In this document: positions 5,139 through 63,875 of the stretch, in pieces
Layout: each line of letters begins with the position of its first letter
Position numbering within the stretch: the first letter of the stretch is position 1
Assembly: GCA_030265395.1 (NCBI GenBank)
Contig: JARFYF010000050.1
Coordinates: forward strand, 33,407,129 to 33,471,128
Direction: 5' to 3'
From: Rhina ancylostomus
Taxonomy: Eukaryota
DNA length: 64,000 nt
The notes under the pieces: generated by a model
Databases searched by the model: none
What the model was told of the DNA's origin: nothing
The model's input: the letters and a program-made list of their open reading frames with translations, nothing else
Made by a program: the position numbers and the translations under genes

Positions 5139-5550
5139 GTTAAAAGCACTAGATTTCATTATAAATAGAAAAATTCCCTGCCTGTATGTTGATTATTGTA
5201 TGCTAACCATGCATTGATACTATTTCCCTCCTCACCGATAATGCTAACTTTTCATATGCATGTTTTCTAAGACACTAACTTTATTCTGACTTCATTAGTG
5301 CAGAATGCTCTTTGCTTATTTTTGCTTAATTTTTGCAACCAATAGTTAATAGTTTGGCATTTATCATACTTAAAATGTAATTTTCTTCCCTGAATAATGC
5401 TGAAGTTATCAAATCTACATGAAGAAAAATATATTTGCAAACGAATAATTGTTTTAAATCTCCATTATTGGGACTGAGAGCAAAAATTAAACAGTTTATT
5501 CAAAAATCTTTTACATCTGTGTTAACCACTGTCTGGTCCCCTTTTCTAAG

Positions 5551-8500
5551 CTGGAGCCACCTTTGGCAAGTTCTAACGCCTGGCAACAGCTACAGAAGCT
5601 GAACCAGGACCTGCAAGCTGAGCTGGAAGTTCAACGGCAAAAACAGGAGGTGGCTAATACACAAGCCCAGAGCCAAAAAAAGAGCTACCAGGATGCCAAG
5701 GAGCTCTTAAGACAGCAAGAGGCAAAAATGCAAAATCTTCAGGCCAGACTGGACATTTCTTTGTCAGAGGTAGCCATTAATGAACAGTCATTATCCAAAG
5801 CACAAAATGAGTTGAGACTTGAGCGTCAAAAGTACAAAGAACAAGCTGATGAGTATGAGAGAAAATTAAGTATGTTTAGCACCAAGCTGTGTGAGAGTGA
5901 AGAGAAACTTAGAGAAGTAGAGGGATTGCTTCTCGAAAAGACTCAAAGTTTTAGGGATCTAGAAAGGCAAGTGGCTCTTCAGGACAACTATCAGCGAGAA
6001 GTGAAGCGACTGCAAGATCATCTGGAAGAAGCATGCAGTCGGCTACACAGCAGTGAACAAGAAGTTATTCTGAGTGAAGAACGTTTTAAGAAACAGTATG
6101 AAGGTCTGAAAGAAAAGTATGAAAAGGAAAAAGAGCTCTTGTCGCACAATGTACAGGAAGCTGAAGATAAGATCAGAGAATATGAAGATCGCCTACAGAC
6201 TCTTGAGGCTCAATTAGAGAGAGTTCAAAAAGAAAAATTGGCCACTTCCTTCAAAAGCAGTGAGATGGTGAGGCAAATGGAAGAACATGTTNNNNNNNNN
6301 NAGGGGGCAGTTAAGCGGCTTACCCATGATGTAGACATCTTGTCAACTGAGAATGAACGATTAACTCAGCGCTATCAGGAAATAGTTAATCAGTTGACAG
6401 AAGCTGACAGAGAAGTTGAAGGGCTGAAGTTAGAACTGGTAAAGGATCGAGAAAGGTATCAAGATCTGAATGAAGATTTTGAAAAGGCTGTTCAAGAGGT
6501 GAATACACTGAAAAATGAAGTAGAAGAAACCAATTTTAAAATGGTATCAATTAAGAAATCCTATGAGAGAGAATTGGAAAAGAAAAATAAGGACTTCAAT
6601 GAAGCTTTAATCAAGCTAGAAGCTTTGGGCACCAGCTTGGAGGAGACAGAGAAGAAACTGCAGCTTAAGGAGGCCACACTTAAAGGACTTGGTTGGCAAG
6701 TGCCAACAGACGTTGATATGCTTCTAGAGAAAGAAAAAGAACTTCATATCAAGTTAGAAGAAGCAGAAGCTAGGTTAGCTGAACAGAGCATGAATCTGCA
6801 GATAACTGAAGCCAATTATAAGGGCCTTCTTTCCCAAAAAAACAAACTTCAATCAGATTTAGAAATTTTAAAGAAACAAAATGAACATACAACAAAAAGT
6901 AATCTTTCAACAGTTGAAAATGTTCTTCAATGCCCCACAACTTGGTCTGAACCCGAGGGAGGCCAGAGCGCACTCAATTCTAGTGTGCAGCTTTCTGAAG
7001 AATTAATGACAAGGCTTCAGCATTTGGATGGTCAAGTGACAGTACTGGCTGATTCAGTAGTTCAAGCATTTTCTGAAAGTTGGTTTTCAGGGCTACCATC
7101 CTCTGAGAATACTGAAAGTTCATGTAACTCAACAGTAGTGAATAGTTGCATAACAAACCTGAAAAAATGCCTGACAATTGTATGCACACTTGAAACTAAA
7201 TTATTCGTAGCAGAACAAAACATTAAAAGGGAAGTTGTTTGTCCTTTAGATACAAGACTCCATTGCGACGCTAAAAACCACGGAGCGCTATTGGATCCTG
7301 GAGTTTATCCAAAAGAGCAGGGGTCAGAAAACCAACCATTAACGTATTCTTTGTCAGAGTATTTCTCCAGTTCAAATATCAAACATGATGTACTGGTCCA
7401 GGCTGAATTCCAGTCACTGCAAACAAAACTGCTTCAATTGCATCACATTTTGGAAAGTTTACAACAGAAAATTGGTCAGCTTGCACAAGAATGGAATATG
7501 GGAGAACATGGACAATTGCGTGAATTAGTTCATGCATTAGGAGGTTCAGTACAATACTTGCAATGTATAGAAGAAGATTTAGCCAGAAAAAATAGAGTAT
7601 TTTTTGGTGAAGAATCTTTAGTAAGAGATTCCTTAACAGAAGAGGAAAAACTAAAATATTTAGCTGACAAACTTTCACTTGAAGCAACAGCACTTAACAA
7701 TATAGCTGATGCTTTGCAGAATTCAGACTCCAGTGTGAAAAATATTTTAGATGAAATTAGAAATCAGAGTGAAAATGTTACCATGCCTTTGGTTTCTATG
7801 GATAATGTCAGTACTCAAATTGGGCATGCTGTTCTTAACAAAATATTTATAGAAGGAGAGTTTTGGGCAAATATGCCTAAAATTCAGGAAAACAAGATAC
7901 CAGATGTTGAAGAGCAAATGAGCAAGCCTATCAGCAGTTATTTAAATATGATGGCAGACAGTAGCTTAATAAAAGGTGAAATATTGTTCTGGGCCCATAA
8001 TATTTTGGAAGTTTCAAAAGAAAAGCTGCAGCAACTGAAAGCACAGTACACAAAATTACATCTTAGAAGCCAGAACTGTGAACAGATGCTCAGGAATATT
8101 GTAGCTGCTTATGGCACTTGCCGTCTTGATGAACTGATCAAAGAAATTCGGAATGAATTGAATAAAGATGAAGAAGAAGAATCATCATTGCTTTTCTGTT
8201 CTCAAGCTTGTAGACCACCATCAGCATCTAATTTGGCTGACCAGGACTCTGAACTTTGTGTAAGGACAGAGTTAGTGCAACAAATTAAGAAAAATGCTTG
8301 CTTGTTGAAGAAAATGTCACACTGTATTCAATCAGGTGCAGATGATGAATTGGGTCTTCTGGCTAGAAAGTTTGTTCACAGTGTGGATTGCATACCCACA
8401 TTAAGCAGACATTGTAATGCAAAAGATATTTGGCCTTTTCTGCTACAAGATGCAATGATGCAAGCTGAATTGTCATATGTAATCTCCAAGATACAGTTAA

Positions 8501-9273
8501 AACATGATGTTGTGCATAGTGGGGATAAACAATTGAGAGTGGACACTTTAGAAATGGAGCACTCAAACTCCATTACTTCATTGCAGGGTATGGATGTAGC
8601 TGAATTGAAGAAACAAAAAGAACAGGACATTAAGTTTAAAAAATTCAAAGGGGACCTTGCAGAGTTTAAACAGTCGGATATTTCAGAATCAGGTGCTGCT
8701 GCTTGGACAACTCATATCCATATTGAGGGAGAACCAATTGACTCACTGGACAAGGCAATTGAACTTCAGGACATGGCAGCAAGGCATAAAAAAGAGCTGC
8801 GTGAAGTGCGAGAAGCATATGAAGCTGAGGTGGAGAAATTGAAAAGGGAAATAGCAAGAGCAGGGGAAACATTAAGGCTGAAGACAGAAGAAAATGTAAA
8901 GGAAATAGATTCATTGACTATTTGCATGGAGAACTTGAAGGAAAAGCACGTCGAGGAGCTGAAGAGACGAGGGGAAGAATTTAAAATGGAGAAGAGAGAA
9001 CTGGATAAAAAGTGTGCTAGGGTAAAAGAAGAGCTTACACGAGAAATTGAAGCTTTAAAAGAATGTAGAGATCCTAAAGAATTGGACCTAGTAAGTGATC
9101 TGCAGAGATCAACTGACCCATACAGGAAACCAGCAAGCGAGATGCATTCCATGGCCCTGCTTAGAAATCGTATACAAGAGCTGGAGTCCCAGATAGATGC
9201 CATGAAAAATAAGATTGAAGCCAGTCCAACAAATCTGCGTGAGAAATATGAAAAGGACCTGGAGAATCTCAAG
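5551..9273 (+). CDS. MPRIP: MPRIP-family gene, giant internal coiled-coil exon (3723 nt, 1241 codons, phase 0/0)
   Basis: Acceptor cccttttctaag|CTGGAG and donor AAG|gtgtcc. The start LEPPLASSNAWQQLQKLNQDLQAELEVQRQKQE...LLLEKTQSFRDLE matches the large alternative exon of long MPRIP isoforms. The end EKYEKDLENLK joins ATCERGF in the next exon. The 10-N gap at 6292-6301 keeps frame. This may be a paralog rather than the ortholog. Confidence 0.93.
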
Positions 9274-9303
9274 GTGTCCATGTATTTAATACTGAATAGT
9301 AAC

Positions 9304-9401
9304 TGCATGTTGGCTTGTAGCATTACACCTTGCTGCCAGCAGTTAGCTTATGTTTGTGTTCTGTTATGTGTATCAATCTGCATGGCAGATAGAACTGCAT
9401 G
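9304..9401 (+). promoter_or_regulatory. Cluster of three RBFOX motifs (TGCATG) downstream of the giant exon
   Basis: TGCATG at 9304-9309, 9379-9384 and 9396-9401, all within 130 nt of a weak 5' splice site. Confidence 0.6.
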
Positions 9402-11164
9402 ATGTGCTATTGGACTGGGCAAAGTCCTGAAGAGTATACTTTCTAAATTTTAAGGGAATGGTGGAAGGGGACAGATCCTGCAGCTGACAAATAATGCTGA
9501 ATAAATAAGAAACTGGTTGCATTATATTTGCATAAAAGAACTGTTATCGAAACTGTCCAGTTTTGAGCCAAGAGTTTGCACCTAGAAAAAGTACCTAAAA
9601 TTTGCCCAGTTCTTCTGTCTATCTTTTTGAGTTTACTGTGTGCTCTTGTGCATCTTTTTTCAAATGCAGTAGAACCCATTTATCTGCTATGCCTTGCTTA
9701 AGTTATCAGAAAGACATTAAAGATTTTAGTATTGTTCAATATGGCATTTTAAAAATTCTATTGTAACTCCTAAAATCAAAATATTAGAATATCTTTTTCT
9801 AATGTATAAACCATTATGACTTTGTTTACTGTTCTTGTCCAGCCTTTGACATTAAAAGATTTTATTCATCACTTGAACTTCATTGATTATGCCAGTTTGA
9901 CTCCGAGTAGATTTGTCAACATGTAAAAATCTTTGCAAAGATTTACAAAAGTCTCTAATTACTCTTGCTTTAACAATTTTTTTAACATTGCATCCTTATT
10001 TTAAAAAGATTAAATTTGCTGTTGTTAACATTTTATTGATGTATTTAGGTTCATTCTGAATGTATCATTTTTGATAAGTAATTTGCAATTCTGGTGGAAC
10101 AGTGGGTTCAATTGCATTTGATTAAAAGCATCCCTTCACAGGAATCAAGCTATGCTTGGCAACGTAAGTTGGTGACTATGTTACCTTCAGTGTTTGACCT
10201 AATGCTATGCAATTAATATACGAATCTCCCTTTCTTTTCCTTTCTCTTTCAGCTGGCTACATATCTCTATTGCACCTTTGAGACATTAATAAACTAACAA
10301 CTTATTTTATTTACCAAGTGATGTCACAAAGATCCTTATGTTATCATATTTTCTACACAAGAAAAGGTCTCATTTCACATTGTTGAAAGTTTTAAGTTGT
10401 CCCTAGAAACAATGTGGCTTGGGTAACTTGAGGTGATTATCTCAATCAAGGCTCTTTTTTGACTGAAGACAGTTAAATCAAACCAGCACGTGCAAAGGAA
10501 CATTTTTCTCCATGACAATGTTAAAAGTTAAAAANNNNNNNNNNNNNNNNNNNNNNNNNNNNNNNNNNNNNNNNNNNNNNNNNNNNNNNNNNNNNNNNNN
10601 NNNNNNNNNNNNNNNNNNNNNNNNNNNNNNNNNNCCATGACAATGTTAAAAGTTAAAAATATCACAAACAAAGTTGGTCCCCAATTCAAATCCTGATTAC
10701 GTGGTGCAAGGAGGTACACTATTATGGATGCTGAACTTAGATAGTGGGAAGAGAAAATTTCATGGACCTCACTTCTAATGGCTCTCATTTGACCTCTTAT
10801 AGCAGTGTGGATGATTGAATCAGTGTGCTGTCATCAGGACTGACTGCTGGACTGAAATATTAGAGGGCATCCAGGACTTCTGGACTTGACACCACCAAAA
10901 AGTCAATGCTGGTTTTTTGCATGTGTGCTTGTGTGTGAGTTTGAGGGGGTGGAATTGGTGGGAGGGAAGAGGTATGAGAGCATTGGAAGCTGATGAATTT
11001 CAGAAAATGCACTAAGCATAATTATTGAGCTTTATAATGGCAGAAATTACAGATGCACATAAGAGTTTATTTTGGGATTAAAATTCAGTGGTTACCAACT
11101 ACTAAAGAAAGCACTTTAAGCTCTTAGAGAGGTGTTGGCTTCACTATTTCTATTTTTTAAGACC

Positions 11165-15444: not shown

Positions 15445-15950
15445 GTCAGAGAGAGAGAGAAACAGCAAGGAAATAGGCCCTTCAGCCCACTGAGTCTGCA
15501 CAATCATCAACCACCCATTTGCATTTTTAAATCCCCACTGTTTAAAAAATTCTACCATATTTTCTTTAACTTGCCCCAAGTTCTACCATTCACCTACACC
15601 ATAGAGACGATTTGCAGTGCCCAATTAACCTACCAACCTGCAATGTCTTTAGAACATGGATGGAAAGCATCTGGAGAAAACCCAAAATAAAAACCAAAAA
15701 TGCTGGAAATAATCAGCAGGCCAGGGTGCATCTGTGGGAAAAGAAACATTTCAGGTTGACAAAGGGCTTTTGGCATTTTCTGTTTTTATTTTGGATTTCC
15801 AGCATCTGCAGTTTTTTAAAATTTTCGTTTACCAGAGGAAACTTGTGCAGTTGCAGGGAGAATATGAAAACTCCACATAGACAGCACAATCAGGATGGAA
15901 TCCAGTCACTGAGGCAGTGACTCTTAATAGCTGCATCACCGTGCCGTCCC
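15445..15950 (-). mobile_element. V-SINE-type tRNA-derived SINE with a CR1-like tail, interrupted by a nested Penelope-like hairpin fragment (about 15684-15834)
   Basis: Tail aggaaataggcccttcagcccactgagtctg, V-domain remnant and head aactccacatagacagcac...caccgtgccgtccc. The insert carries aatgctggaaat...cagcaggccagggtgcatctgtgg and an inverted tttccagcatctgcag. Confidence 0.7.
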
Positions 15951-20732: not shown

Positions 20733-20767
20733 TTCAGTTACCATCATTACTGATAACTATATAGTCC

Positions 20768-20896
20768 AGGACTGATACAGGGCCTTGCCCTGAAATGTCA
20801 ACCATACCCTTTCCTCCACAGATGCTGCTTGACCTGCTCAGTTCCTGAGCAGTTTGTTTTTTGTTCCAGGTTCTATTATCTGCAGTCTCTAGTGTC
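20768..20896 (+). mobile_element. Penelope-like end with a degenerate hammerhead core
   Basis: CTGATAC-AGGGCCTTGCCCT-GAAA-TGTC followed by cacagatgctgcttgacctgctcagttcctgagcag. Confidence 0.65.
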
Positions 20897-39479: not shown

Positions 39480-42400
39480 TCTTTGGGGGAGATTTAGGGT
39501 CAAGTTGTGACTATGCACTTGCATCTAATCACAAATTTAAATGAAAAGGAATCGACTTACGAGTGCCTCTGCTACCGGATNNNNNNNNNNNNNNNNNNNN
39601 NNNNNNNNNNNNNNNNNNNNNNNNNNNNNNNNNNNNNNNNNNNNNNNNNNNNNNNNNNNNNNNNNNNNNNNNNNNNNNNNNNNNTAGGTAGTGTTGCCTT
39701 TGGACATCAATTTGCCGTTAGTCCTGGAATGTTGTTGGAGCAGGAATTGTAGATGTGCTCAAGAAAAGTTGGCAGGTAAAGTTTCTGCATCCAAACCTCT
39801 TGATGATGAGCCTTCTGGCAGTGAACTTGGTAGAAATGCAAGTGTAACATATTTCTGATCCATACTATTAACCATATTGCCATACAGAGTACAGAATTGC
39901 TGAAATCATCTGTTAACTTAAAATTTGTTAGTCCTTTTCAGGTATGTTGCTACCCAGTGTGGCCCTTGGTGCAAGACACTTCTGGACGAGGAAGTTCATT
40001 TGGTAAAAATGTTCATCCAGATTAACATTGTGTTGCTTCAAATGCTGCCTTGAGAACACACTCAACTCTGCTCTGGAACTTAGCACTGGTCAATATTTGG
40101 ATTGATACAGTCAATGGCTGTAATGAGCTCTGGAGCTGAGTAGTCCTGGATATCAAAGTTAGACCTTGAAGGATTTATTTGTTTGTCTCTCTGTAGACAC
40201 AGCCTGACCTGCTTAGTATTTCCAGCATTTTCTGTTCTTATTTCAAATATTCAGCATCTGCAGTACTCCAGATGTGTTTTCACTTGAGCCCTATACAGTT
40301 GTGGCAAGACAATCCCACTCTTACAAGGAGGATCAATGTTCCTAATTATTTACTGTATCGGTGCCAACTTTATGCAAACCTCTTCCTATTCGGAGGCCTG
40401 CAATAATCTTGAAACATTATAAGCCCTGTCTTTCAATCTAACCCCATCCTTAACTTTAGTTAACCCCTTTCAACTTATTCCCCAATAGTCTATGTTAAGA
40501 GTTACAAAATATTTCCTTAAGTGCCTGCCATTTATCTACTATAATACCTATTAATCTAATTTACCTATTTGTTAACTTTCCTTTAAGTTTCAGTCCCATG
40601 TTTGTCACTCAGATGCTGTTAAATTCTTTTCTGCTTTGATCATTCAATTTCAAAGAAAAGGAAATCTATTAGAATGCCAATAAATCCTGTCCTTTAGCAA
40701 TCGTATCTTAAAATAGTCTTATGAGTCTGTGACTTTGTTCTAGGAAACTTGCTCAAATATATTCCATGAACTCCTTATGTAAATCTTTGCCAGCTTGTTG
40801 TGCCCAATGAAGATTAAAGTCACCCATTGTTATTTGCATTACTCTTGCTACAACCTTGTTTACTTCTTGACCAATCCTATCCAATGGTACAATGACTGTT
40901 ATGTGAACCTATAGACTATTGCCTCCAATAATCATTGTTCGAAATAGAATTAGCTTATTTCCTCCTTTTATTATTAGAGCCAGCTTACCTCCTTTTCCAC
41001 TGTGTCTATCCTTCCAAAATGTTGGTTATCTTGGAAACTCATTTCCCAATCTCGGTCACCATGAAACACATCTCCAGTGCTCTAGTTCATACCTATTTAT
41101 CCATCCCTGTGACCTCAAATCATCCTTCCATCTTGTTATTAATGCTTCATTTGTGTAGATAAACAGCTTTTAATTTTAATCCCCCTCCTTTCTCTTCTCC
41201 TCCGCGCCCTCCTACCCCCATCCTTCCATTTTGTCCCCTTTTCCCTAAAGACACAAGCTTGCTGTCTATCCCCCTAACTGAACTCCCCTCTACCACTTTC
41301 ACATTAAGTTTTGGTTCCTCTCCTGATTGGTCTCCTGTACCATCATGTTATGGCCAGGCCCATCCTCCCTACAATCCTTGTTCATGTCCTTGTACTGGAA
41401 GAAACATACTGTCCCTTGAGGATTTCATTGAATTCCCACTTTATAGAGCTACAATAAATCATCTATCAAATCTTGACCTGTTTTCAATTAATTTAGGTTT
41501 CTATTTACTTGATATCTAATTTTTTTAATGTCTCTGCTCCTCTTACCTATCATTCAGTTTTATCTGCCATAGCTTGCATTAAGCTCTAAATGAAGTTTAA
41601 ATACTTATTGCCTTAAGCTAAAGAACTATCAGGTGAACAAAGATCAAAAAGTTGCAGATGCGGGAATTCTGAAATAAAAATGGTTAAATGATGGTACTCT
41701 CCAAAGGGGTCACCCAAACTGTCTTTGGTTTCTCTAATTTAGAGACTGCACTGTGAACACTGAATGCAGCACGTTAGATTGCAGCTCACCTGAAGGACTT
41801 TTTAGATCTTTGGATGGTGGAAAGATATGAGGAGTCGCTACTGCACATTCTGTGGTTGAATGAGAAAGTGCTTTGAGAAGGTGAGTAAATGGAGTCAGAA
41901 GAGCAGTCCCTTCCAAATGCTGGAAGGGAAGAAGATGTGTCTAGTGGTCAAATACTTGTGAAGTTTGAGGAAATTGAGAGATGATCTGTTGAATTCAAAG
42001 GCTGGGGTGGAAGACAAGGACCAGGCAAACTCTATCTATGCTTTGGCAGCGGAGACCAGAGGGCCAGGAAATGGGTGCGATATTGGATGGCAAAGGCCTA
42101 GAGGGGCATGGGTCTAATGTGGACAAATGGGATTGGTGAAGGTGGGCATCAGTCAGCTGAAAGGGCCAGTTTCTGAGCTGTATGATTCTAAGGCCTGCAC
42201 TTGGAACTTAGATTTTCAGCTTAATATGACTTTGAAGAAGGAATAGTACACTCCAGATTTAAGTTTGCTAAGAACACAAGTTAAATGGCATAATAAATAA
42301 TGTCAATGGAAATTAAATTATCCTCTATTTGTATCCTTTAAGGTTGGCAGACCCATGGCAGAGTTAAATTCAGGGAAATATGAAGTTATCCATTTTGGAA

Positions 42401-42830: not shown

Positions 42831-44499
42831 TAGTGCAGCTTCTGGACACAGACACAAATCAAATTCCTTCAGTATCGATTATTTCCAAAACTTGTTCATC
42901 TTTATTTATGGAAAGAAATGTATAGAAATGACATGAGATACCACTCGAATTTAAGGCTGAATTTAAAAATAAAATACAACAAGCACATAAAACTCTTGCA
43001 GCCTAATTTAAAAGGTTTCATATATATATAACATATATATAAAACTCACAGTTCAGCAGAGAACCAGTGGCTGGTACAAAGAAACACCAATAATGAAAAA
43101 GCAGTAAATTGCAGCCCACAAGCCAAGCATTTTTCACCGAGCTTCTATACAACAGCTGGTTGCACCAACCTTGGGTAAAGACATTTGTCCAATTTGACAT
43201 GAACTCTGGTGTTAAGACAACAACCCCCACCAGGTGATGGAAATTAGTGCCCAAACCTTCAGAGCCCTGCCTTAAGACATGCAGCTACTTCAGTCCTTTC
43301 TGGTCGTGTGTAGCATTACTCATTTTCAGTATAGACTAATGGCTAATCAATAGAGAGGATAGTTCTTTTTCATTTGGTTTTACCCAATTCCATCCTTCAC
43401 TGTAGAAACATATCCATGTTTAGCTGGAATTAAACAATCTTGCAAAGAATCTGCCCCAAATGATAAACATGGCTGAATAATTGTAATATCAGTATCAAAT
43501 ATGCTTGCTTCATATTACATCTATTCTTGCTGCATTGATTTCTAGTCTGAGAATCAAATAGGAAAAGCTTAGTGAAAAGGCCCTGCTACCATTAAATTTG
43601 GTTAACAGCTTATTGTATATCGTAGGATGGGTCTACCAAAACTGCTATCTAGCTACAACCCTATTATGGTGTCGCTGGTTAAACACAGATTAGAAACATT
43701 TAAGACAATTTCTTAAAATAGAAATGGATCAAAACTGAGATCTGCAACTGACAACAGAAGAGTTTTTCTCATCGTGCATTGGTTAATTTCAAGCCAATTA
43801 AAATGCAGTTGCTGATCAGTCTTGGCATTGGGATTGATAGAAAATAAAGAATGCTGGATACTACAAGACAACAGTGGAATAAACTAAGCCATTTTAATTT
43901 CCTAGATATAGCCTTACAGGGCTATCCCAGTCCCTTACAGCTTACATTTTATAAATGGTCTGTTATTTGCGTAGCTACATTTCCCAGAATCCAGTGTGTA
44001 AAGGGAGAACATGACATTTCTCTCCTGGTTGGAACATTTCATTTTGATTTCACATTTCTGCAACCTATTATGGAGTAGGTAGGGTCTGAAGTATGAGAAT
44101 AAGAAGTAAAATGAGATAGCTCATGGTTGAGCAAGGGTTATCCAGTGAGAAACTGTGCTATATATACTCTTTAGCTTGTGCTGTATCATTGAACTTGGCA
44201 AGGGTTAACAATTAGTTTCCTTTGGTTTAGACAGAAGAATGATTGCCTGTATTCTTAGTCCTGATCACTGACCTGCTGAGAAATATAGAGGCTGCAATAG
44301 GCAGAGGATCAGGCTCGGGTACGATTTAGATTGGTCCCTCAAACATTTCTTCTATTGTCAATCAATCATTCAAAGCATTAAACTTGCTGCCCCTAGAAAA
44401 TGAATCATTCCTATATCTTGGGAACCATTCATTAGTGAGCCAGAACAGTGGTCATCTAAACAAAAGGTTCAAACCTCACCTAAAACTCATTGTCTTTCA

Positions 44500-45005
44500 G
44501 TTGAGACTCCTGGCCTCCTATGTGTTTTTGAGGTTTTCATTATCTACACCAAGCACTTCAAAGTGTTGGACAGCTATTACCAATGCTATCCCTGCAAAAT
44601 CCTCCAAATCCAGAGCCAGAAGTAGTAAATTAATGCCACTGTCCTCTCCCAGCTCTACTTACACCACACTGGGCAGGCTTCAACATTCACATGCCCAACA
44701 CCAGATTCCTGAAACACTATTTTCTGAGCTTTGATGTGGGAAGAGTTTATCAAGTGGGAAGATGAAAACATTCAAGGGTGTTCTTAAAACCTCCTCAAAG
44801 AAAAATGCAACATCCTCACCATCTCCTGGGATTTCTTCTCCTGTGACCTTTCACGGAGCAGAAGATGCATACTCTGAAGCACACCACCTACTGCCTTCCC
44901 TCCTGTACCACCTGTGGCAAGACCTGCAGGCACCACATTAGCCTCATCAGTTACCACACAGCAAGTGGAAGGCAGTTATCTTCATTCCCAAGACAGTGCC
45001 TAAGA
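44500..45005 (+). mobile_element. RTE-clade LINE 3' fragment
   Basis: Remnants of W-GH..RMP..RIPK.L..SEL and the terminal CTTCGKTCRHHISLISYH motif typical of RTE ORF ends. Confidence 0.65.
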
Positions 45006-46002
45006 GACAATTTACTGCACAGTAATAATAGAAACCAAGGTCAAGAAGGTGGTAACTATAAACAAAGAAATGTGACATTGATGTTTGCATAATTTAACAC
45101 ATTTTAAATGATTTTGTTTTAGATCCAGACAGAAATTTACAGTTTACCTTACAGGGAAGGAAACAATGGTGCAACTGAGACTTAACAGGTCTCTAGAGCA
45201 TAGGAAGCAGAAATAATACTACTCATGAAAATATCTGAAAGCAACAGACTGCTAGAGTGCAACATCACAGGAGAGGGTCTGGGCTCTAGCTGCCTAATAA
45301 TGCGTTTATCTATGGAATGGTTAGATAAACTGGATCACACGTGAAGGGGATGGGAAAGTGGAGAAAATGTAAAAACAGGTAATGAAAGGTGGCTTGGAAT
45401 AACATTTAGAGTCAGGGGTGTCTTGAAATAAGGTATGGGGTGGGAGCAATGTATTCGAGAAATGAAAGACTGGAACGGAGCCCTTGCAACAAATACAAAA
45501 AATTAGATTTCTTTGTTCTTGGCATTTATCCACTGCTTACTGACAATTAAATGATATCAACAAGCTTCTGTTATTCAACTCAGCTCAATACTGAGCCATC
45601 ACGGATACAAATTGTAATGAAGTTGGAGAAACAGAATTATCTTTTCAGTTGACTGGCGAAATTTAGATCCAACCTATTGGTAGCATACTTGGTCAAGAAA
45701 CCGACCGTCTCCTTGTACATTCACCTATTATGCTGCATATGTCATCGTCCAAACTTTTAGCAGAAGTAGTTCGATGATGGGTACAATTCTCTAAACTAAA
45801 CAATGCCTAATTATCCAGCTGTCTAAATGGCATATCAGCCTTCTGACATCTTACCTTTTGCTTGCTTTCCCAGCAGTGTTCCACTGATAGTGATAGTCTC
45901 CGTAACTTATCAGCCTGGTCAAAGCTACAAGTCAGCCCCATGAGCTGAGAACTGAGTCTGTTAACTTTCAACATGCCTCTTTTTGTTTCTGCAATGAGTA
46001 AT

Positions 46003-46115
46003 GCTGATGAAAGGTCATCAACCTAAAGTGTTAACTCTGTTCACAGATACTGTCTGAGCTGCTGAATATTTTCAGGATTTTCTGTTTTTATTTTACATTT
46101 CCAGTGTTCAGCTTT
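46003..46115 (+). mobile_element. Penelope-like end with a degenerate hammerhead core
   Basis: CTGATGA-AAGGTCATCAACCT-AAAG-TGTT-AACTC followed by cacagatactgtctgagctgctgaatattttcag. Confidence 0.6.
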
Positions 46116-48491: not shown

Positions 48492-49554
48492 CTGCAATAA
48501 AGGACATGGGAGACCACAGTGCTTTCTTTCAATATCTTCAGTTTGCTTTACTGTGAAGGCAACAAGTGGCAGCTGAATTTTTCTCACAAAACAGCATGTC
48601 CATCTCCAAGCAGTCTGTGAAGAACCACCTGTGGATGTGTTAATACAAAATGTTACAAGAAAAATAGTGATACCATGACAGGTTTGCTTTAACTTTACAC
48701 CTCCATTTCCATAGCACTTGTACTTCACTGATTGTAAAATGTTTTGGGACATTCTAAGTACAAGTACATGCTGTAAGCACAAGTCTTTCTTCCTGGTATG
48801 ACACATTAAGTGAATTCTTTACATACTTGTTCCTTCGGTTACACAATTACCAATATTATTCACAATCATAATTAGAATGGTCTATTACTCTTCATTAAAT
48901 GTGAGACATGTTACTGAATTTGAAATTGACTACAACTTCTTAACTCCTCAATACCACTGCCTCGCATAAGACCCATTACTATATGCAATGGATTATAAAT
49001 GTAATCACTGATTAAATATAATTACTGATCACTGACTACAATTTGGATCATAGGGCATGAATCACCAACATCTCTGCAAGACATGGTTACTTTACTTGAG
49101 CAGTAGTGTGTTGCTACATATATGAATGTGACTGATCTATTAAATTTTCATGGAAAGTGCCATCATAACTCTATATAGTTTATTTAACTGCCAAATAAAT
49201 CTAAGATTTGGTCCTGAATTATTCTCGCTTAGTGAGGTTTGACAACATTAATTGATTATTTAAGCCACAGTTATACTTCAATTGCTGAGATAGGCAGCAT
49301 CATTTTAGATTCATTACTTCACCCTTCCCACCACCACACTGTGCTGTGCATCACCCTGAAGCTGTCGAGTCAGATGCTGATCATCTCTTCGTCCACCTAG
49401 AACACCTGCTTCACTATCAGTTTCACTTTACTTTGGAACTCCAGGGAATGACCTTCTTAAGCTCCCAGTCTTTAGGCTCCCAGAAGTGGTGCAACACCGA
49501 CCATTTGGAAAATAAATTACATTCATCAGCAAAGCACAAACTGCTTAGGCTGAC

Positions 49555-51410
49555 TGAATTGGTTTGGGATAAATAAGATGTGAGAAGTGAATGCACAGTT
49601 GTGGGAGAAATTAATTTTGTTTCATGGGGCACCAGTGTGGGGTAAAGAGGGAACTATTCTTTTGGGATGGGCTTCCACTGGGTTGGGTTGGGGACGGTGC
49701 CCTAACATATTAAAGAACTTGGGGTAGATAAGGCTTTTAACTAAATGGTGGGGGTGGGTTGTTTGAGGGGAAATGTCAAAGAGATAAAGCAGGTAGTGAC
49801 AACCTGCTTTGTCAGGAAGAGACAGAGAATTCAGACATCAGTATATTTTCAATTAGTTTGAGATAAGAAAAAAATGGTACAAAAACAAAACTGAAGGCTC
49901 TTTATTGGAATACATGCAGCATTTGTTACAGTTGGTGAATGAATGGCATTCGTAGAAATANNNNNNNNNNNNATCACAGAGGTGTGATTGCCAAGTGACC
50001 GACGTTGGAAATTAAATATTGAAGGATACTTAACTTTTAGAAGGGGCACACAAAATGGAAAAAGTGGTGAGGTAGCCCTGATAATAAAAGATGACACAGG
50101 CAGGAGACAGGGTGGACCTTAGCTCAGAAAATCAAATTGTTGTACAAGTTTGGAGGAAGCTATGAAACAGCAAGGGGCAAACCAAATTAGATATAACACT
50201 GCGGAGGATGAATTCCTGGAGTGTATGAGAGATATTTTCTACATCAGTACGTTGAGGAACCAATGAGGTTTCAGGCTACTTTAGATCTAGCATTGTGTAA
50301 CAAGAAAGGGTTAATTGATGATCTAATAGTTAAGGGGTTGTTAGCGAACGGTGCTCATAACATGGTATCGTTTTATATAAAGATTGAATGTGACTTTGTT
50401 CAGTCAGCATCTTAAATATGAACAAACTATGAAGACATGGGGCATGAGTTGGCTATGGTAGACAGAGAAACTACATTAAAAAGGTAAGACAATAAATAAG
50501 CAACATTTTAAGAATTAAATCTACTAAAAACCTCAGGTTAAAACAAAACACAGGAAAAGTGGTTTGGCAGATTACACCAACTAATGTAGTGTATTTCGAT
50601 TTGTAAGAGATTATACATTATACTGCACAGTATTAGAGGTCCAGAATGGTTAATAGTCAAAAAAGAGTATGTAGGAATGAGTCATTTTCATTGGTAGGCT
50701 GTGACTAGAGGGGTGCTGCAGGGCCACAAACTGCCCCAGCTGTTCATACACTATCAATGATTTGGATGAGGAAAGCGAGTATCCAGGTTTGCTGTTGATA
50801 TTAAACTAGGTGGCAGCATGAGCAATGAGGAGAATGCAGAGAGGCTTCAAGGGGTATGGACGGATTCTGTGAAGGAGAAAGGATGTGGAAAACATTGTGA
50901 AATCATCCACTTTGGAAGAGAAGAAAGGCGAAGTTTCTTTTTAAAACAGTGAGAGCTTGAAAGACGTTGGAGGGGCCTGGGTGTGCCAGAAGTTAACATG
51001 CAGGGACAATGAAGCAGGAAAGCGTTTCTTTTGTGTATAGTAATTTTCAGAATCTGTGCATCGCTAGCAAGGACATCATTTATAGCCAACCCATAAATGC
51101 TGGGAGGTGATGGTGAGTCACCTTCTTGAACAGTTTGAGTCCTTTTATTGAAGTTACTCCCACACTGCTACTGGAGGACGAGTTCCAGCATTTAGACCCT
51201 GGTGGCAATGAAGAAACAGTGAGACATTTCTAAGTCACAATCGTGCAGATCTTAGAAAGAAACTCTAGGTGTATGAATCTGTTCTCCCTACTTCAAGAAT
51301 GATATAATTGCAATAGAGGGAATGCAGAGAAGGTGCAGCAGATTGATTTGTGGGATGGTGGATTTGTCACATGAGGAGAAATGAAGCAGACTGAGTTTAG
51401 AATAAAGTGA
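49555..51410 (+). mobile_element. Eroded long CR1 copy with a nested LINE tail (about 51050-51260)
   Basis: Endonuclease remnants (ITEVWL, FLHQYVEEPMRFQATLDLALCN), RT remnants (ggggtgctgcaggg...aggtttgctgttgatattaaactaggtgg) and gcaatagagggaatgcagagaagg. Confidence 0.7.
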
Positions 51411-51764: not shown

Positions 51765-51890
51765 TGATCTGAAGGGTCAATGACGTGAAACATTAACTCC
51801 ATTTCCTTTCCACAGGTGCTGCCTGACCTGCTGAATGTTCCCAGCATTTCCGTTATGTCTCAGATTTCCAAAGTCTGTAATTTTGCTTTC
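51765..51890 (+). mobile_element. Penelope-like end, degenerate
   Basis: gaagggtcaatgacgtgaaacattaactc...cacaggtgctgcctgacctgctgaatgttcccagcattt. Confidence 0.6.
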
Positions 51891-51944: not shown

Positions 51945-52398
51945 TAGAACACAAGAACTCTCATTAAGTTGAATAAGTCACCAGGACCGGATGGGATGTA
52001 CCCCAGACTGCTATGGGATGCGAGGGAGGAGATTGTGGAGCCTCTGATGATGATCTTTGCATTATTGATGGAGACGGGAGAGGTTCCAGAAGATTGGAGA
52101 GTTGCGGATGTTGTACCCTTATTCAAGAAAGGGAGTAGAGATAGCCCAGGAAATTATAGACCAGTGGGTCTTACCTCAGTGGTTGGTANNNNNNNNNNNN
52201 NNNNNNNNNNNNNNNNNNNNNNNNNNNNNNNNNNNNNNNNNNNNNNNNNNNNNNNNNNNNNNNNNNNNNNNNNNNNNNNNNNNNNNNNAATAGAGGGCTA
52301 TGGGTAAGCCTAGTAATTTCTAGGGTAGGGACATGTTCGGCACAGCTTTGTGGGCTGAAGGGCCTAAATTGTGCTGTAGGATTTTTCTAGGTTTCTAT
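51945..52398 (+). mobile_element. Young 5'-truncated CR1 LINE collapsed across an assembly gap
   Basis: Intact NKSPGPDGMYPRLLWDAREEIVEPLMMIF...EVPEDWRVADVVPLFKKGSRDSPGNYRPVGLTSVVG before the gap. CR1 tail (tgtgggctgaagggcctaaattgtgctgtagg...tttcta) after it. Confidence 0.9.
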
Positions 52399-53574: not shown

Positions 53575-53872
53575 TGATATCTCCCCCCGTCTGACCTGTG
53601 TTTCTCCTGTTCCATCACCACCCTTGACTTGCAATATCATCCCTTTTTGGCAATTAATCTCANNNNNNNNNNNNNNNNNNNNNNNNNNNNNNNNNNNNNN
53701 NNNNNNNNNNNNNNNNNNNNNNNNNNNNNNNNNNNNNNNNNNNNNNNNNNNNNNNNNNNNNNTGGAACACTAACTCTGCTTCTCTTCCCTCAGATGCAGC
53801 CTGACCTGCTAAGTATTTCCGGGATTTTCCATTTTTATTTTAGATTTCTAGTATCTGTAGTCTTTTTTTCTC
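53575..53872 (+). mobile_element. Penelope-like 3' end, partly in a gap
   Basis: taactctgcttctcttccctcagatgcagcctgacctgctaagtatttccgggattttccatttttattttagatttctagtatctgtag. Confidence 0.6.
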
Positions 53873-54079: not shown

Positions 54080-54645
54080 GAGATAGGATGTCATGTTACA
54101 CTTGTACAAATCGTTAGTTAGGCCGCTCTTGCAGTATTGTGTGCAGTTCTGGTCACCACACTACAGGAAGGATATGCTTACGCTAGAGAGGGTGCAGAAA
54201 AGATTCACAAGGATGTGTTCTGGATTAGAGGGCTTGAGTTATAAGGAGAGACTGGATTGACTGGGTCTGTTTTCCCTGAAGCAAAGGAGATATGATAGAG
54301 GTACATGAACTTGGAAGATAGAGATAGGGTAAATGGCCACCATGATTCCCATGGTAAGGGTGGCTACAACAAGAGGGCATAGCTTTAAGGTGAGAGGGAG
54401 GAGGTTTAAAGGGGATCTGCGGGTTAAATTTTTCACATGGAGTAGTAGGTATCTGGAATGAGCTGCCAGAGGAGGTGGTCGAGGCAGGAACACAAGCAAC
54501 ATTTAAGAGGCTACTTGAATGAGCAGGGCATAGAGGGACAAGGAATTAATGCAGCCAAAGGGGATTAGTATAGCTAGGCAAGATGGTCAGCACAGACGCG
54601 GTGGGCTGAAGGACCTGTTTCTATGCTGTACAACTCAGTGACTTA
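54080..54645 (+). mobile_element. CR1 LINE 3' end
   Basis: LYKSLVRPLLQYCVQFWSPHYRKDMLTLERVQKRFTRM motif and tail gtgggctgaaggacctgtttctatgctgtacaactc. Confidence 0.92.
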
Positions 54646-55458
54646 ATATTTTTACAGTGTCCCTCAGTGGTTGCGGTCGTGATGGTGGATGCTTATTCAC
54701 TTTCAGTGGAGGTGGCTGCAGATGGCATTTGCAAGTGGTCCTTGTCCAGCTGTGGAGTGCAGTCTTGCAATTAGCAGCAGTGACCTGGGCTAGCTGGGCT
54801 GATGGACATCAATGAAGAGACTACTGGAGTGAATGCTGTGGGAGCATGAATGCTGTTAGCCTCAGAAAGGACAGCATTTTTGCACACCACAGAAGAAGGC
54901 ATCAACCATCCTAGTAACCTGCTGGAGGGCAGATTGCTGGAGCAGTGCAGCACCTTCTGAGCCCCTTTGGACAGTGTATCCAGAGCCACAACAGCAGCAG
55001 CACAAACTTTTAAGCTGAGCTGACCTCCCACTGCAGCATCCAGATATCAACTGGTTCTGCAGATACTACAACAAGACCTGAGACATCAGACATTAGGCAC
55101 TGCACCATCATTAGATCTGCCAGTGCTGACAAGGACCTAGCCATCAATTTCAGGCTAGGAAGAATCAGGTCCAAGCTTCAGGCTCCATGCAAAGACATGT
55201 GNNNNNNNNNNNNNNNNNNNNNNNNNNNNNNNNNNNNNNNNNNNNNNNNNNNNNNNNNNNNNNNNNNNNNNNNNNNNNNNNNNNNNNNNNNNNNNNNNNN
55301 NNNNNNNNNNNNNNNNNNNNNNNNNNNNNNNNNNNNNNNNNNNNNNNNNNNNNNNNNNNNNNNNTGGGAGAGATCCACATGCCTAATGACTCACCAAGTG
55401 CAGATCTCAGCTCTAAGCTATTTTTCCATGTATCCATAAAATACTGGGATCCAAGCTG

Positions 55459-55686
55459 AGACACAAGAGATTCTGCAGATGCTGGAATCTGAAGCAAAAC
55501 ACACAAATGCTGGAGGAACTCAGCAGATCAGGCAGCATCTATAGATGGAAATAACAGTCAACATTTCGGATTCAGACCCTTCATCAGTCCTGATTTCAGG
55601 TCTCGACCCAAAACACCAACTGTTTATTTCCTTCCATAGATGCTGCCTGACCTGCTGAGTTCCTCCAGCATTCTGTGTGTGTTTCT
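55459..55686. mobile_element. 228-bp hairpin Penelope-derived element with two inverted hammerhead cores and a 15-bp target-site duplication
   Basis: Arms of about 55501-55587 and 55590-55680 are reverse complements. Flanking direct repeats are CTGGGATCCAAGCTG (55444-55458) and CTGGGATCTAAGCTG (55687-55701). Confidence 0.85.
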
Positions 55687-57057
55687 CTGGGATCTAAGCT
55701 GTGCATTTGTGTGCCTGATGGAGTATTGAGGTATCTTATTCTTGAGGTTCATTAGCCATAGACTCGGCAATTGTTGTTTACAACGGTGCAGTTAGATGAG
55801 AGAAAACAGACAGATATGAAACGTACCGATGGCTTAAACCATCAGCATGTTGTAAAACAGATATTGAAGGATGAGGAGTGGAAAGTAGGAAGGAGTATTA
55901 GATACAAGCATACCACCTTCAAGGATCGTTAATTTAGAGTGGCAGATGACCCCCAGTGAATGCAAGCATCCCATCCTGAGTAAGTCTAAACCATAGCTTC
56001 CCACCATCTGTTATCCAGGTGGCAGGTGCATGCCACCTCTTTCTGCAAAAGGGAGGGAATAGTGTTAGTGATTGTGTTGCAATGCCTCGGCCAATGGCCA
56101 TAAACCTGGAAGCGTAAACTACGAGATGCAACTAATACAAGTGCTGTAGTAATGGTCAGAGTGTACAGGACCTATTGCTATTAGAAAGAAGTGATAAATG
56201 CTTGAGACTGTAGTTAGATGACTAATGGAGCGGTAGTACATGAGACAGTGAGTGAGTGAACTTGTGGGCTATGGGATTTTGTTGATATGCTCCTGGACCT
56301 TGACCCCATGTTTGCAATCTTAGGCTTTCCCTTATAATAGAAACAGATCCCAGGACATCACATTCTCCTCTTAGTTGCATTTAACTCTAAGCTCTGTAGC
56401 TGCCTGGATGTTCAAGCAAGACAACATCTTTGTCTTTTGTCTTCCTCTTCCACCCAGAATTTCAAAGTCCAAACTGGTGAAACAGGGTATCTGCTCCCAT
56501 TTCTGTGCTGCTAATCATGCCAACAATGCTCACAAAGCTGCACAATGACTTCCAGCAGTGGGTGGTGTCAATGATTACCTTTCCTTTACGAGGTGGAGGC
56601 ACAATATTAATTAGCAGACATTAGTTTCAGCTCATGAAATAACTGATGTGTGCACAATACAAAAATGGTTATGACCAGCAACGATTAAGCTGTTGATTCC
56701 TTCACAGGATATGAACAGACAAAAATGGCATTAGAATAATTCGGTGCAGATATCCTGCACAGCGACATTTTGGCATTTATCTTCATGGATAATTCCTTGG
56801 ATGCGGTGTCCAATTTCCCACTGAATGATTACGTTTTGACCCAATAAACTAACAATTTGCATGGTGTAACCCACCCAACAGATCTCCCTAATGGACAGTA
56901 AAAAATCTTCTGTCACCAACCACTGTCACAAGAGTTATCTTTATCCTACACAATCTGTCTGGATTCAGTTGAAAGAAAAAACATATATGAAAAGCAAATA
57001 TAAAAACAAATAATGAATAACTTATGGTGAAAGATGAAGTATGTACTCATGCCATAC

Positions 57058-57107: not shown

Positions 57108-57435
57108 CTGTAATAGAGCAAATGAAGATTAACCAATATCCTTCACATCTAAAGATACATTTATACAGCAGACATCAAATCCGACACAATTAACAAAGAC
57201 TCAGAGCATAGCCTAATTGGTTGTGGACAAGAATCACTGCTCCACTACTGTGTACAATAATTCCAAGCCCTTACACTGCAAGTACAATATATATAATCTT
57301 CGTAATTTTTAAAAGTAATTTTCCAGTTTCCCACATTAATTAATTAATACCCATGAATTCAGCTAAAGCTCTTTCAAAGAGCTGACAAAGACACAACAGG
57401 CTGAGGCATCCTTTTGCACTACAAGAATCTATGTT

Positions 57436-57530
57436 TCTGATGGAGGGTCCTCAGCCTGCAACAATGACTGTTTATCTCTCCATAGATGCTGCCCAACATT
57501 CTGAATACCCGCAGTATTTTATACTTCTAT
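57436..57530 (+). mobile_element. Penelope-like end with a degenerate hammerhead core
   Basis: CTGATGG-AGGGTCCTCAGCCT-GCAA-CAAT-GACTG followed by tctctccatagatgctgccc. Confidence 0.55.
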
Positions 57531-62144: not shown

Positions 62145-62805
62145 TTCATACAGGAAAGGAAAAAAGGAGAGAGATTTCCACTAACATTGTGCCTTCCACT
62201 GCTTCAGATATCCCAAAACACTTTACAGCCAATTAAGTACTTTCGAAGCATGGTCACTGTTATTAACCCACAGTGACACAACAGCAATGTAATAATAATA
62301 TAATCTGAGACATGAGATTCTGCAGATGCTAGAATTTCGAGCAACACTCACAAAAAGTGCTGGGGGAACTCAGCAGGTCAGGCAGCATCTATGGAGTCGA
62401 CATTTACTATAAACAGTCGACATTTTGGGTCGAGCCCCTTCATCAGGACTGGAATGGAAGAGGGCAGAAGAGTAAGAAGGTCGGGGAGGGGAAGAAGCCA
62501 ATGCAGGTAAGTGATAGGTGAATTCAGGTGATAGGCACGTCCAGGTGAGAGGGGAAGGTAGGAGGGTGGGGGAGGGGAAGATTTAATGATCATGACTGAA
62601 GGACAAATAGTGGCCAAGATTATACAGTAAATGCCTGTTTGTGATTGAACAGATGCCCTGCAGGACTGGTAAAGCTGCACCACTGATAATGCAGCACTCC
62701 CTCCCTCTGCACTGAAATGTCAGTCTGGATACTTTGTGCTTGTCTCTGGAGCCCAAGCTGCAACCTCGTGAGAGGTGAGAGGGCTAACAAAGGCTGACTG
62801 ACACT
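62145..62805 (-). mobile_element. Deu-domain (SacSINE-like) SINE split by a Penelope-like insertion
   Basis: Tail atcccaaaacactttacagccaattaagtactttcgaagcatggtcactgtt (62210-62262), and Deu/head portion gataatgcagcactccctccctctgcactgaaatgtcagtctggat...gagaggtgagagggctaac (62685-62790). Confidence 0.6.
62307..62585 (-). mobile_element. Penelope-like element end carrying a near-complete minimal hammerhead motif (62414-62451)
   Basis: Minus strand CAGTC-CTGATGA-AGGGGCTCGACCC-AAAA-TGTC-GACTG. Same terminal sequence as the 55459 element, plus a purine-rich internal stretch. Confidence 0.8.
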
Positions 62806-63155: not shown

Positions 63156-63454
63156 AATTGCAGTGAAATCCTGAGCAGTTGCAAATATTAAGTGACGAAT
63201 GTGGGACAGGAGGTACCTACTTCCCTTCCTATGGAACACACCAAATACTGAACGAAAATTACTTAAAAAGAAATCACAGCATAGCTGGGCACAAATTGTG
63301 AACTTTACATGTATTTGCTTGGGGGATGAGGAGAAGAAGTGAACAACACAAATTTAAAAGAAAACAGAAATTTACATCACAGGAACTAAATTAGAGAATA
63401 TTTATAGCTGACTAGTGCATTCAGAGCCAGGCAGAAGTGAAGGAGCATTATCAG

Positions 63455-63875
63455 GAGAGATTAAAGGACTTAGGGCTTCACTCTTTGGAGAGGAGGATGA
63501 TAAGACGAGACAGGATAGAGGTGTACAAAATATTAAGAGGAATAGATAGAGTGGACAGCCAGCGCCTCTTTCCCAGGACACCAATGGTCAATACAAGAGG
63601 CATGGCTTTAAAGTAATCAGTGGGAAGTTCAAGAGAGATATCAGAGGAAGGATTTTTACCCAGAGAGTGATTGGGGCATGGAATGCGCTGCCTGGGGCGG
63701 TAGTGGAGGCAGGCATATTGGTCAAATTCAAGAGATTACTAGATAGGCATATGGAGGAATTTAAAATAGAGGGATATGTGGGAGGAAGAGGTTAGATAGT
63801 CTTAGGCGAGGTTTAAAGGTCGGCACAATATTGTGGGCCAAAGGGCCTGCATTGTGCTGTGTTGTTCTATGTTTT
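63455..63875 (+). mobile_element. Fairly young CR1 LINE 3' end
   Basis: LKDLGLHSLERRMIRRDRIEVYKILRGIDRV motif and tail ggtcggcacaatattgtgggccaaagggcctgcattgtgctgtgttgttctatgtt. Confidence 0.92.

Follow-up and report, generated by a model that had tools for sequence, protein, structure and literature searches.

A hairpin insertion of two head-to-head hammerhead-bearing repeat copies that probably stems from the terminal repeat of a Penelope-like element

Penelope-like elements (PLEs) leave a recognizable integration signature, composed of an inverted, truncated copy and a tail of 30-40 bp on one end (PMC8557442, PMC3846280). The rotifer PLEs described in PMC3846280 show target duplications of 8-10 bp and palindromes at the 5' ends of their terminal repeats, and a 34-bp repeat is reported for Penelope of Drosophila virilis (PMC2377424). 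PLE terminal repeats are also associated with minimal hammerhead ribozymes (min-HHRs). According to PMC4209133, the intron of D. virilis Penelope ends at helix I, and min-HHR pairs located on opposite strands lie 100-700 bp apart; none of the 56 motifs in Fig. S3 of that paper comes from a cartilaginous fish. Cleavage of min-HHRs as dimers is cited in a review (PMC6765202). Inverted terminal copies with opposed hammerheads are an arrangement already in print. For the PLE of the anole, nicking and extension of both target strands were demonstrated in vitro, the tail being the stretch between two reverse transcriptase (RT) start sites and the main template being uncleaved RNA (PMC11167929). In the whale shark, expanded Penelope-like elements were reported in introns (10.1101/443036).

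The window (the whole 64,000-nt stretch that was analysed) consists of vertebrate-type DNA with introns and 16 assembly gaps, the host presumably being a cartilaginous fish. At 55459-55686 it carries an insert of 228 bp, which is composed of two head-to-head copies of a hammerhead-bearing repeat, placed between target-site duplications and probably derived from one insertion of a PLE terminal repeat, with both ribozymes predicted to be inactive. The insert is flanked by 15-bp direct repeats (55444-55458 and 55687-55701, both given on the plus strand) that are identical at 14 of 15 positions. The coordinates and letters of the original prediction, including its one mismatch, were confirmed, and the 15-bp target duplication supports the single insertion event proposed there. 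A flank match of at least 14 of 15 positions is expected by chance at about 7e-8 per placement and 3e-5 over 400 placements. On both strands of the whole window, the 15-mer of the left repeat was found within two mismatches only at these two sites, hence at no other locus of the family in the window, in agreement with the earlier view that the flanks are not part of the element. The last 3 nt of the left duplication copy are the same as the 3 nt following the end of a sister copy (62302-62600), a possible priming microhomology, and the right duplication copy shows a weak resemblance to the start of the tail.

The left arm (55493-55587, minus strand) is a terminal-repeat segment extending from the ribozyme core to the tail, and the right arm (55590-55686, plus strand) is tail-less and contains an AATAAA on the minus strand (55628-55623). 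The arms are identical at 77 of 97 columns, i.e., 57 of 64 outside the ribozyme and 20 of 33 inside it. A one-sided extension of 34 nt (55459-55492, minus strand), which we read as the PLE tail, is present on the left arm only. Neither this extension nor the eight other family loci in the window figured in the original prediction. The minimum-energy RNA fold of the minus strand contains 85 arm-to-arm pairs (11 G-U; -139 kcal/mol) and that of the plus strand 76, and the fold of the insert has z values of -14.5 and -12.4 in relation to 200 shuffles. The stem of 85-90 bp that had been predicted therefore holds for the minus strand, but not for the plus strand.

A minimal type I hammerhead motif was distinguished in the left arm (55555-55587, minus strand), with CUGAUGA at 55587-55581, GAAA at 55567-55564, an extra A after the core, a helix II of 4 bp and a GUU site ending at 55560. 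The two proximal pairs of its helix I are mismatched (G-A and A-G), and helix III, considered as a dimer, reads AU/UG/GU/UA, with a centre formed by wobble pairs only. The right arm carries a decayed motif (55585-55622, plus strand; core CUGAUUU, AAAA, site ACC), in which a GAA-to-TTC change beside helix II (55595-55597) is likely the result of a template switch. Both motifs had been read letter-exactly in the original prediction, which described a minus-strand core (CUGANGA plus GAAA) that is intact, with proximal stem I disrupted, and a plus-strand core that is decayed. One additional base, located between nucleotides 9 and 10.1, and the G10.1-C11.1 pair are present in the left arm and in the 62302-62600 copy. 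With a relaxed core descriptor, three matches were obtained in the window, the left arm being the sole one with a helix II of at least 4 pairs; the expected number of core plus helix II matches per window, calculated from 30 Markov controls, is 0.03. A scan with Rfam models, suggested earlier as a check, gave no hammerhead match, either for the whole window at the gathering score or for 55367-55900 at E<=10, and the Rfam matches seen were generic hairpin ones below their cut-offs. The motif agrees with the consensus in Fig. S3 of PMC4209133, in keeping with the proposed PLE-type minimal hammerhead, and that of the family corresponds to the commonest vertebrate PLE min-HHR form listed there (GAAA-C-G-U-C). 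The family helices pair in 72.6% of cells, compared with at most 45% for slid helices. Among seven decayed copies covariation amounted to one two-sided change, a value as high as in 439 of 500 shuffles. At positions 15.2-16.2, TG occurs in three of the four young copies and CA in one, CG being kept by none; such TG/CA variants in the same columns point to five positions of putative ancestral CpG, among them the helix III palindrome.

The left arm is presumably not a working ribozyme, because its proximal helix I pairs are mismatched, the family motif being complete elsewhere. In addition, the core is expected to be buried in the stem, since the antisense copy of each core precedes it in the transcript, whichever strand is read. 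The probability of the G10.1-C11.1 pair is 0.0 in the full insert vs. 0.24 in the arm alone, and the cost of forcing the core open is about 19 kcal/mol in the full insert vs. about 4 kcal/mol in the arm alone. On the basis of helix I and helix III of the left arm, the decayed core of the right arm and these fold energies, both ribozymes of the insert are predicted to be catalytically inactive, as had been supposed for this copy.

The arm recurs at nine loci (11 arms) in 64 kb, as identified with blastn and nhmmer. All arms but the pair at 15.7 kb (nine of 11) served as seeds for the nhmmer profile, and a reversed control gave no family match at E<=1. At a density of nine loci per 64 kb, the family would be very abundant. 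Two sister copies carry a tail: a non-inverted copy (62302-62600, minus strand) with a perfect 5-bp helix I, a GUC site and a decayed G12, and a single-arm copy (20767-20896, plus strand) that starts with CAGGA-CTGA and by its sequence visibly belongs to another lineage. A second inverted insertion, of a diverged lineage, is located at 15678-15815; its junction differs from that of the insert, and here as well the extension (tail) is found on one arm only. The remaining loci, all on the plus strand, are a single-arm sister copy that starts at the core (57437-57520), diverged single-arm copies starting at the core (46002-46110) or near it (51768-51889 and 40141-40267), and a diverged copy interrupted in its 5' part by an assembly gap (53763-53868). 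An automatic search revealed no convincing target duplication at the eight loci other than the insert. The 15678-15815 insertion lies inside what we take to be a SINE (approximately 15460-15950), presumably with a decayed flank repeat that was recognized by eye only; its flank shows no resemblance to the tail (30% of random 20-mers score as high). Just downstream of its ribozyme, the 62302-62600 copy contains an insertion of 8 nt (62398-62412) in which the sequence of helix III and the cleavage site is repeated. For the 57437 copy, what may be a short inverted remnant lies in the 5' flank (57396-57459), together with an inverted repeat of 10 bp formed with helix II, and this copy may be a third, eroded inversion.

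The 5' side is readable at eight of the nine loci. Six of these (the insert and the copies at 20.8, 40.1, 46.0, 51.8 and 57.4 kb) start within about 5 nt of the core, which for three diverged copies was judged from the loss of the pyrimidine tract and from positions set by eye; of the other two, one is long and one joins inside helix II. Relative to the cleavage position, the starts of the copies lie some 27-32 nt upstream and their ends some 70-100 nt downstream, and in no copy does either coincide with it. Given that the 5' boundary is situated about 27-32 nt upstream of the cleavage site, it was not made by self-cleavage. In the 62302-62600 copy, a polypyrimidine tract (88% C/T; within 62452-62600) ends in CAG exactly at helix I, and this tract with its CAG resembles a 3' splice site, situated where the intron of D. 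virilis Penelope comes to an end. The 5' boundary of the family could be set by splicing, by a start site or by an RT stop.

The family was assigned to PLEs by its anatomy, because no linkage to an RT or GIY-YIG ORF was found: the ORF list and a Pfam scan of 26 chosen frames gave no such ORF in the window, and protein searches with the repeat translations retrieved no Penelope ORF. The insert is accordingly classed as a non-coding terminal fragment rather than as an element. The single true relative among the protein matches, the 181-aa frame P0002 (55% over 53 aa, no RT), reads as a sense and an antisense copy of the repeat placed tail-to-tail, and the antisense match stops at the core edge. 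Two further protein matches, P0001 and P0003, were rejected as low-complexity or unrelated. Atlas gave no usable match for the repeat, and the phage and plasmid collections contained no match. Prokaryotic genomes yielded 0 loci and then seven, which matched just the pattern and 1-3 flanking bases and were judged to be chance. A text search for two 18-nt stretches of the repeat located them in no paper, and the single PMC8557442 supplement file included in the search lacked them as well. In a literature search covering sources other than repeat databases and subscription journals, no published account was found of the family, of a self-propagating hairpin form or of 5' ends at the ribozyme edge; the family may already be listed in the supplements of a 2026 preprint or in the sequence file of the anole element PAc.

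The inversion junction of the insert (55585-55592) is a CAG-TC-CTG mini-palindrome, in which one CAG serves the two arms at once, closing the inverted core and opening helix I of its partner arm (an overlap of 3 nt), and the cores of the two arms are placed head-to-head, 2 nt apart. With its one-sided 34-nt tail and inverted partner, the insert has the anatomy of a truncated and inverted Penelope copy, one of the two alternatives initially offered. Such a copy would be formed if a PLE endonuclease-reverse transcriptase, provided in trans, introduced nicks into the two target strands at a spacing of 15 bp. Primed by the left nick, cDNA synthesis would begin at the outer start site and produce the arm that bears the 34-nt tail; primed by the right nick, it would begin at the inner start site and produce the arm that lacks a tail. 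With uncleaved RNA as template, both cDNAs would run as far as the 5' edge of the ribozyme, and the 3-nt CAG/CTG overlap of the mini-palindrome would serve to join their ends. As one and the same segment is represented in both arms, the process would call for either two RNA molecules or two repeats within one tandem transcript. Later CpG decay and one templated change would then have eroded the cores, destroying the right one. The step in which two cDNAs are joined is one that we infer from a single locus. Two simpler routes were considered and rejected: fold-back of the tail-bearing cDNA should produce a GA loop on the plus strand, which reads TC, and fold-back of the tail-less cDNA cannot supply the tail.

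The insert is located on the same strand as a host gene encoding an extended PHD finger, two exons of which were recognized on the minus strand (58995-58902 and 57107-57058; Pfam PF13771, E=2.9e-7, 31 bits with a cut-off of 29.1; splice sites read). It lies about 1.36 kb downstream of the exon 57107-57058. We take this gene to be RAI1/TCF20-like. Between the last recognized host exon and the insert there is no AATAAA or ATTAAA, the first being inside the insert (55628-55623). Host RNA therefore likely reads into the hairpin, as no poly(A) signal precedes it, and the minus strand is likely to form long dsRNA in the host RNA; the AATAAA at 55628-55623 could end the host RNA before the second arm is made. 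The plus strand contains a 1,300-codon coiled-coil exon (5491-9402), followed by small exons up to approximately 32600, and this gene is convergent with the PHD-finger gene. We assume that the plus-strand gene at 5.5-33 kb is MPRIP-like; in Atlas its large exon matches only generic chordate coiled-coil clusters. Long open frames rich in Ser, Lys and Thr (44330-44938 and 49236-49573, both plus strand) have no Pfam match and are possibly exons or decayed coding sequence. Four further regions (256-1212, 51948-52307, 54087-54545 and 63416-63800) are presumably RT or 3'-end fragments of CR1-type LINEs, and no Pfam match was obtained in the four frames scanned.

Two observations are not predicted by independent one-off inversions. 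The 20767 copy begins with CAGGA-CTGA, which is the minus-strand junction of the insert in the same polarity, that of the tail-bearing arm. Moreover, among transition mismatches between the arms, those that keep pairing on the minus strand as G-U outnumber the others 10:1 (post hoc p=0.012), these G-U-compatible mismatches being mostly C-to-T on that strand, and three single copies lack a bias of this type (Fisher p=0.04 when C>T is compared with G>A and 0.011 when all transitions are considered, in small, post hoc tests whose reconstruction took in both arms of the insert). Both would suit a replicating, non-autonomous hairpin family, in which the PLE enzyme would copy a palindromic master RNA read from the tail-bearing strand, and apex-truncated copies would give single arms that carry the hairpin junction. 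We nevertheless consider this origin unlikely. The 20767 copy is of a different lineage and its upstream TCCAG equals that of a normal copy, so that its junction is equally well explained by inversion of a 2-nt loop; the second inverted locus has another junction; the bias tests are limited as stated above; and most of the changes represent CpG decay, which accumulates after insertion. As regards the shared inversion centre raised in the original prediction, the junction sequence of the insert recurs in the window in the single-arm copy at 20767 and not at 15678-15815. Similarly unlikely is a broader proposal of a PLE family with short progeny and a fixed 5' boundary at a splice acceptor, which includes a self-propagating head-to-head hairpin that silences its own ribozymes, brings dsRNA into host transcripts and keeps the pairing of its RNA strand. 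The G-U bias favours the strand of the host gene, and two single copies in introns of the same gene do not show it (C>T vs. G>A 2:2 and 4:5); taken with the site of the insert 1.36 kb beyond a minus-strand exon and with the first AATAAA/ATTAAA lying inside it, this could indicate that the host kept the stem after an ordinary insertion, for use in the minus-strand transcript (as an editing substrate or in the control of RNA 3'-end formation or splicing). Such use is very unlikely, given that the arms have drifted at 20 of 97 columns and that strand-biased repair in a DNA hairpin, or chance, would give the same pattern.

The other alternative initially offered, a unit of the retrozyme type, would require that the repeat be freed by hammerhead self-cleavage, circularized and reinserted. 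The properties of the unit (non-coding, about 130 nt long, a hammerhead of type I, a long target duplication) would suit this, and PLE terminal repeats are the source of retrozymes, whose presence in one cartilaginous fish has been reported (bioRxiv 10.64898/2026.07.22.740005). Under self-cleavage, however, a unit would be expected to end at the cleavage site, where no copy in the window ends; the window contains no tandem array of the unit, and the copies in the insert are head-to-head and not head-to-tail. This alternative was consequently abandoned as highly improbable. The long inverted repeat might also suggest a DNA transposon (MITE or foldback element) or two unrelated insertions, with the flanking repeats as part of the element, and the right flank resembles the family tails to a degree reached by 1.7% of 3000 random 20-mers (with the tails only roughly in register). 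We give almost no credence to this explanation: with a length difference of 34 nt between its arms, the insert lacks terminal inverted repeats that extend to either extremity alike, seven of the nine loci have a single arm (one of them cut by a gap), and the flanking 15-mer is confined to the insert among the family loci. The reading that we prefer is the insertion of a PLE terminal repeat as two joined arms.

As such, the single locus presents a compact PLE integration signature (a tail on one arm, an inverted partner and a target duplication) and fits the two-strand, two-start-site chemistry of the anole element in vitro. The family outweighs the locus in importance, as it bears on what sets the 5' ends of PLEs, on any role of the ribozyme and on how often inverted copies put perfect hairpins in host RNA; the 5' ends observed here argue against cleavage as the boundary-setter. 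If the junction and the G-U bias recur, they would define a new hairpin-type non-autonomous retroelement.

The 5' inversions of L1 elements arise by twin priming, with two primers from the two target strands and a microhomology join; the insert would be alike in this, but differs in that both its arms copy the same segment. The minimal type I PLE hammerheads of Fig. S3 in PMC4209133 share with the family the CUGAUGA core, the extra base before helix II, the G10.1-C11.1 pair, the GAAA-N-N-U-H stretch, a palindromic CG (ancestral and inferred in the family), a 5-bp helix I and a pyrimidine-rich 5' flank. In contrast to the opposite-strand pairs of the same paper, the cores of the insert are separated by 2 nt, and each buries the other. 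In its geometry, PAc (Poseidon of Anolis; PMC11167929) resembles the family in having an ATG at the core/helix II boundary; copies of the family end about 94 and 126 nt downstream of the ATG, compared with RT starts at 111-118 nt in PAc, and in both cases the ends are not at the cleavage site. Unlike in PAc, the frame from the ATG is closed in the copies found here. Non-LTR retrozymes (PMC7229834; bioRxiv 10.64898/2026.07.22.740005) are, like the insert, short non-coding PLE-derived units with a type I hammerhead, whereas the insert has no head-to-tail tandem units and its boundaries are not set by self-cleavage. In the accounts of inverted pseudo-LTR insertions of PLEs that encode an endonuclease (Penelope/Poseidon and Neptune; PMC3846280, PMC8557442, PMC2377424), the insert is matched by the inverted truncated 5' copy, the target duplication, the tail on one end (34 nt here) and the junction at a short palindrome. 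It differs from them in the lack of an ORF between the repeats and in having both arms cut back to the ribozyme edge, and its duplication of 15 bp is longer than the 8-10 bp of the rotifer cases in PMC3846280.
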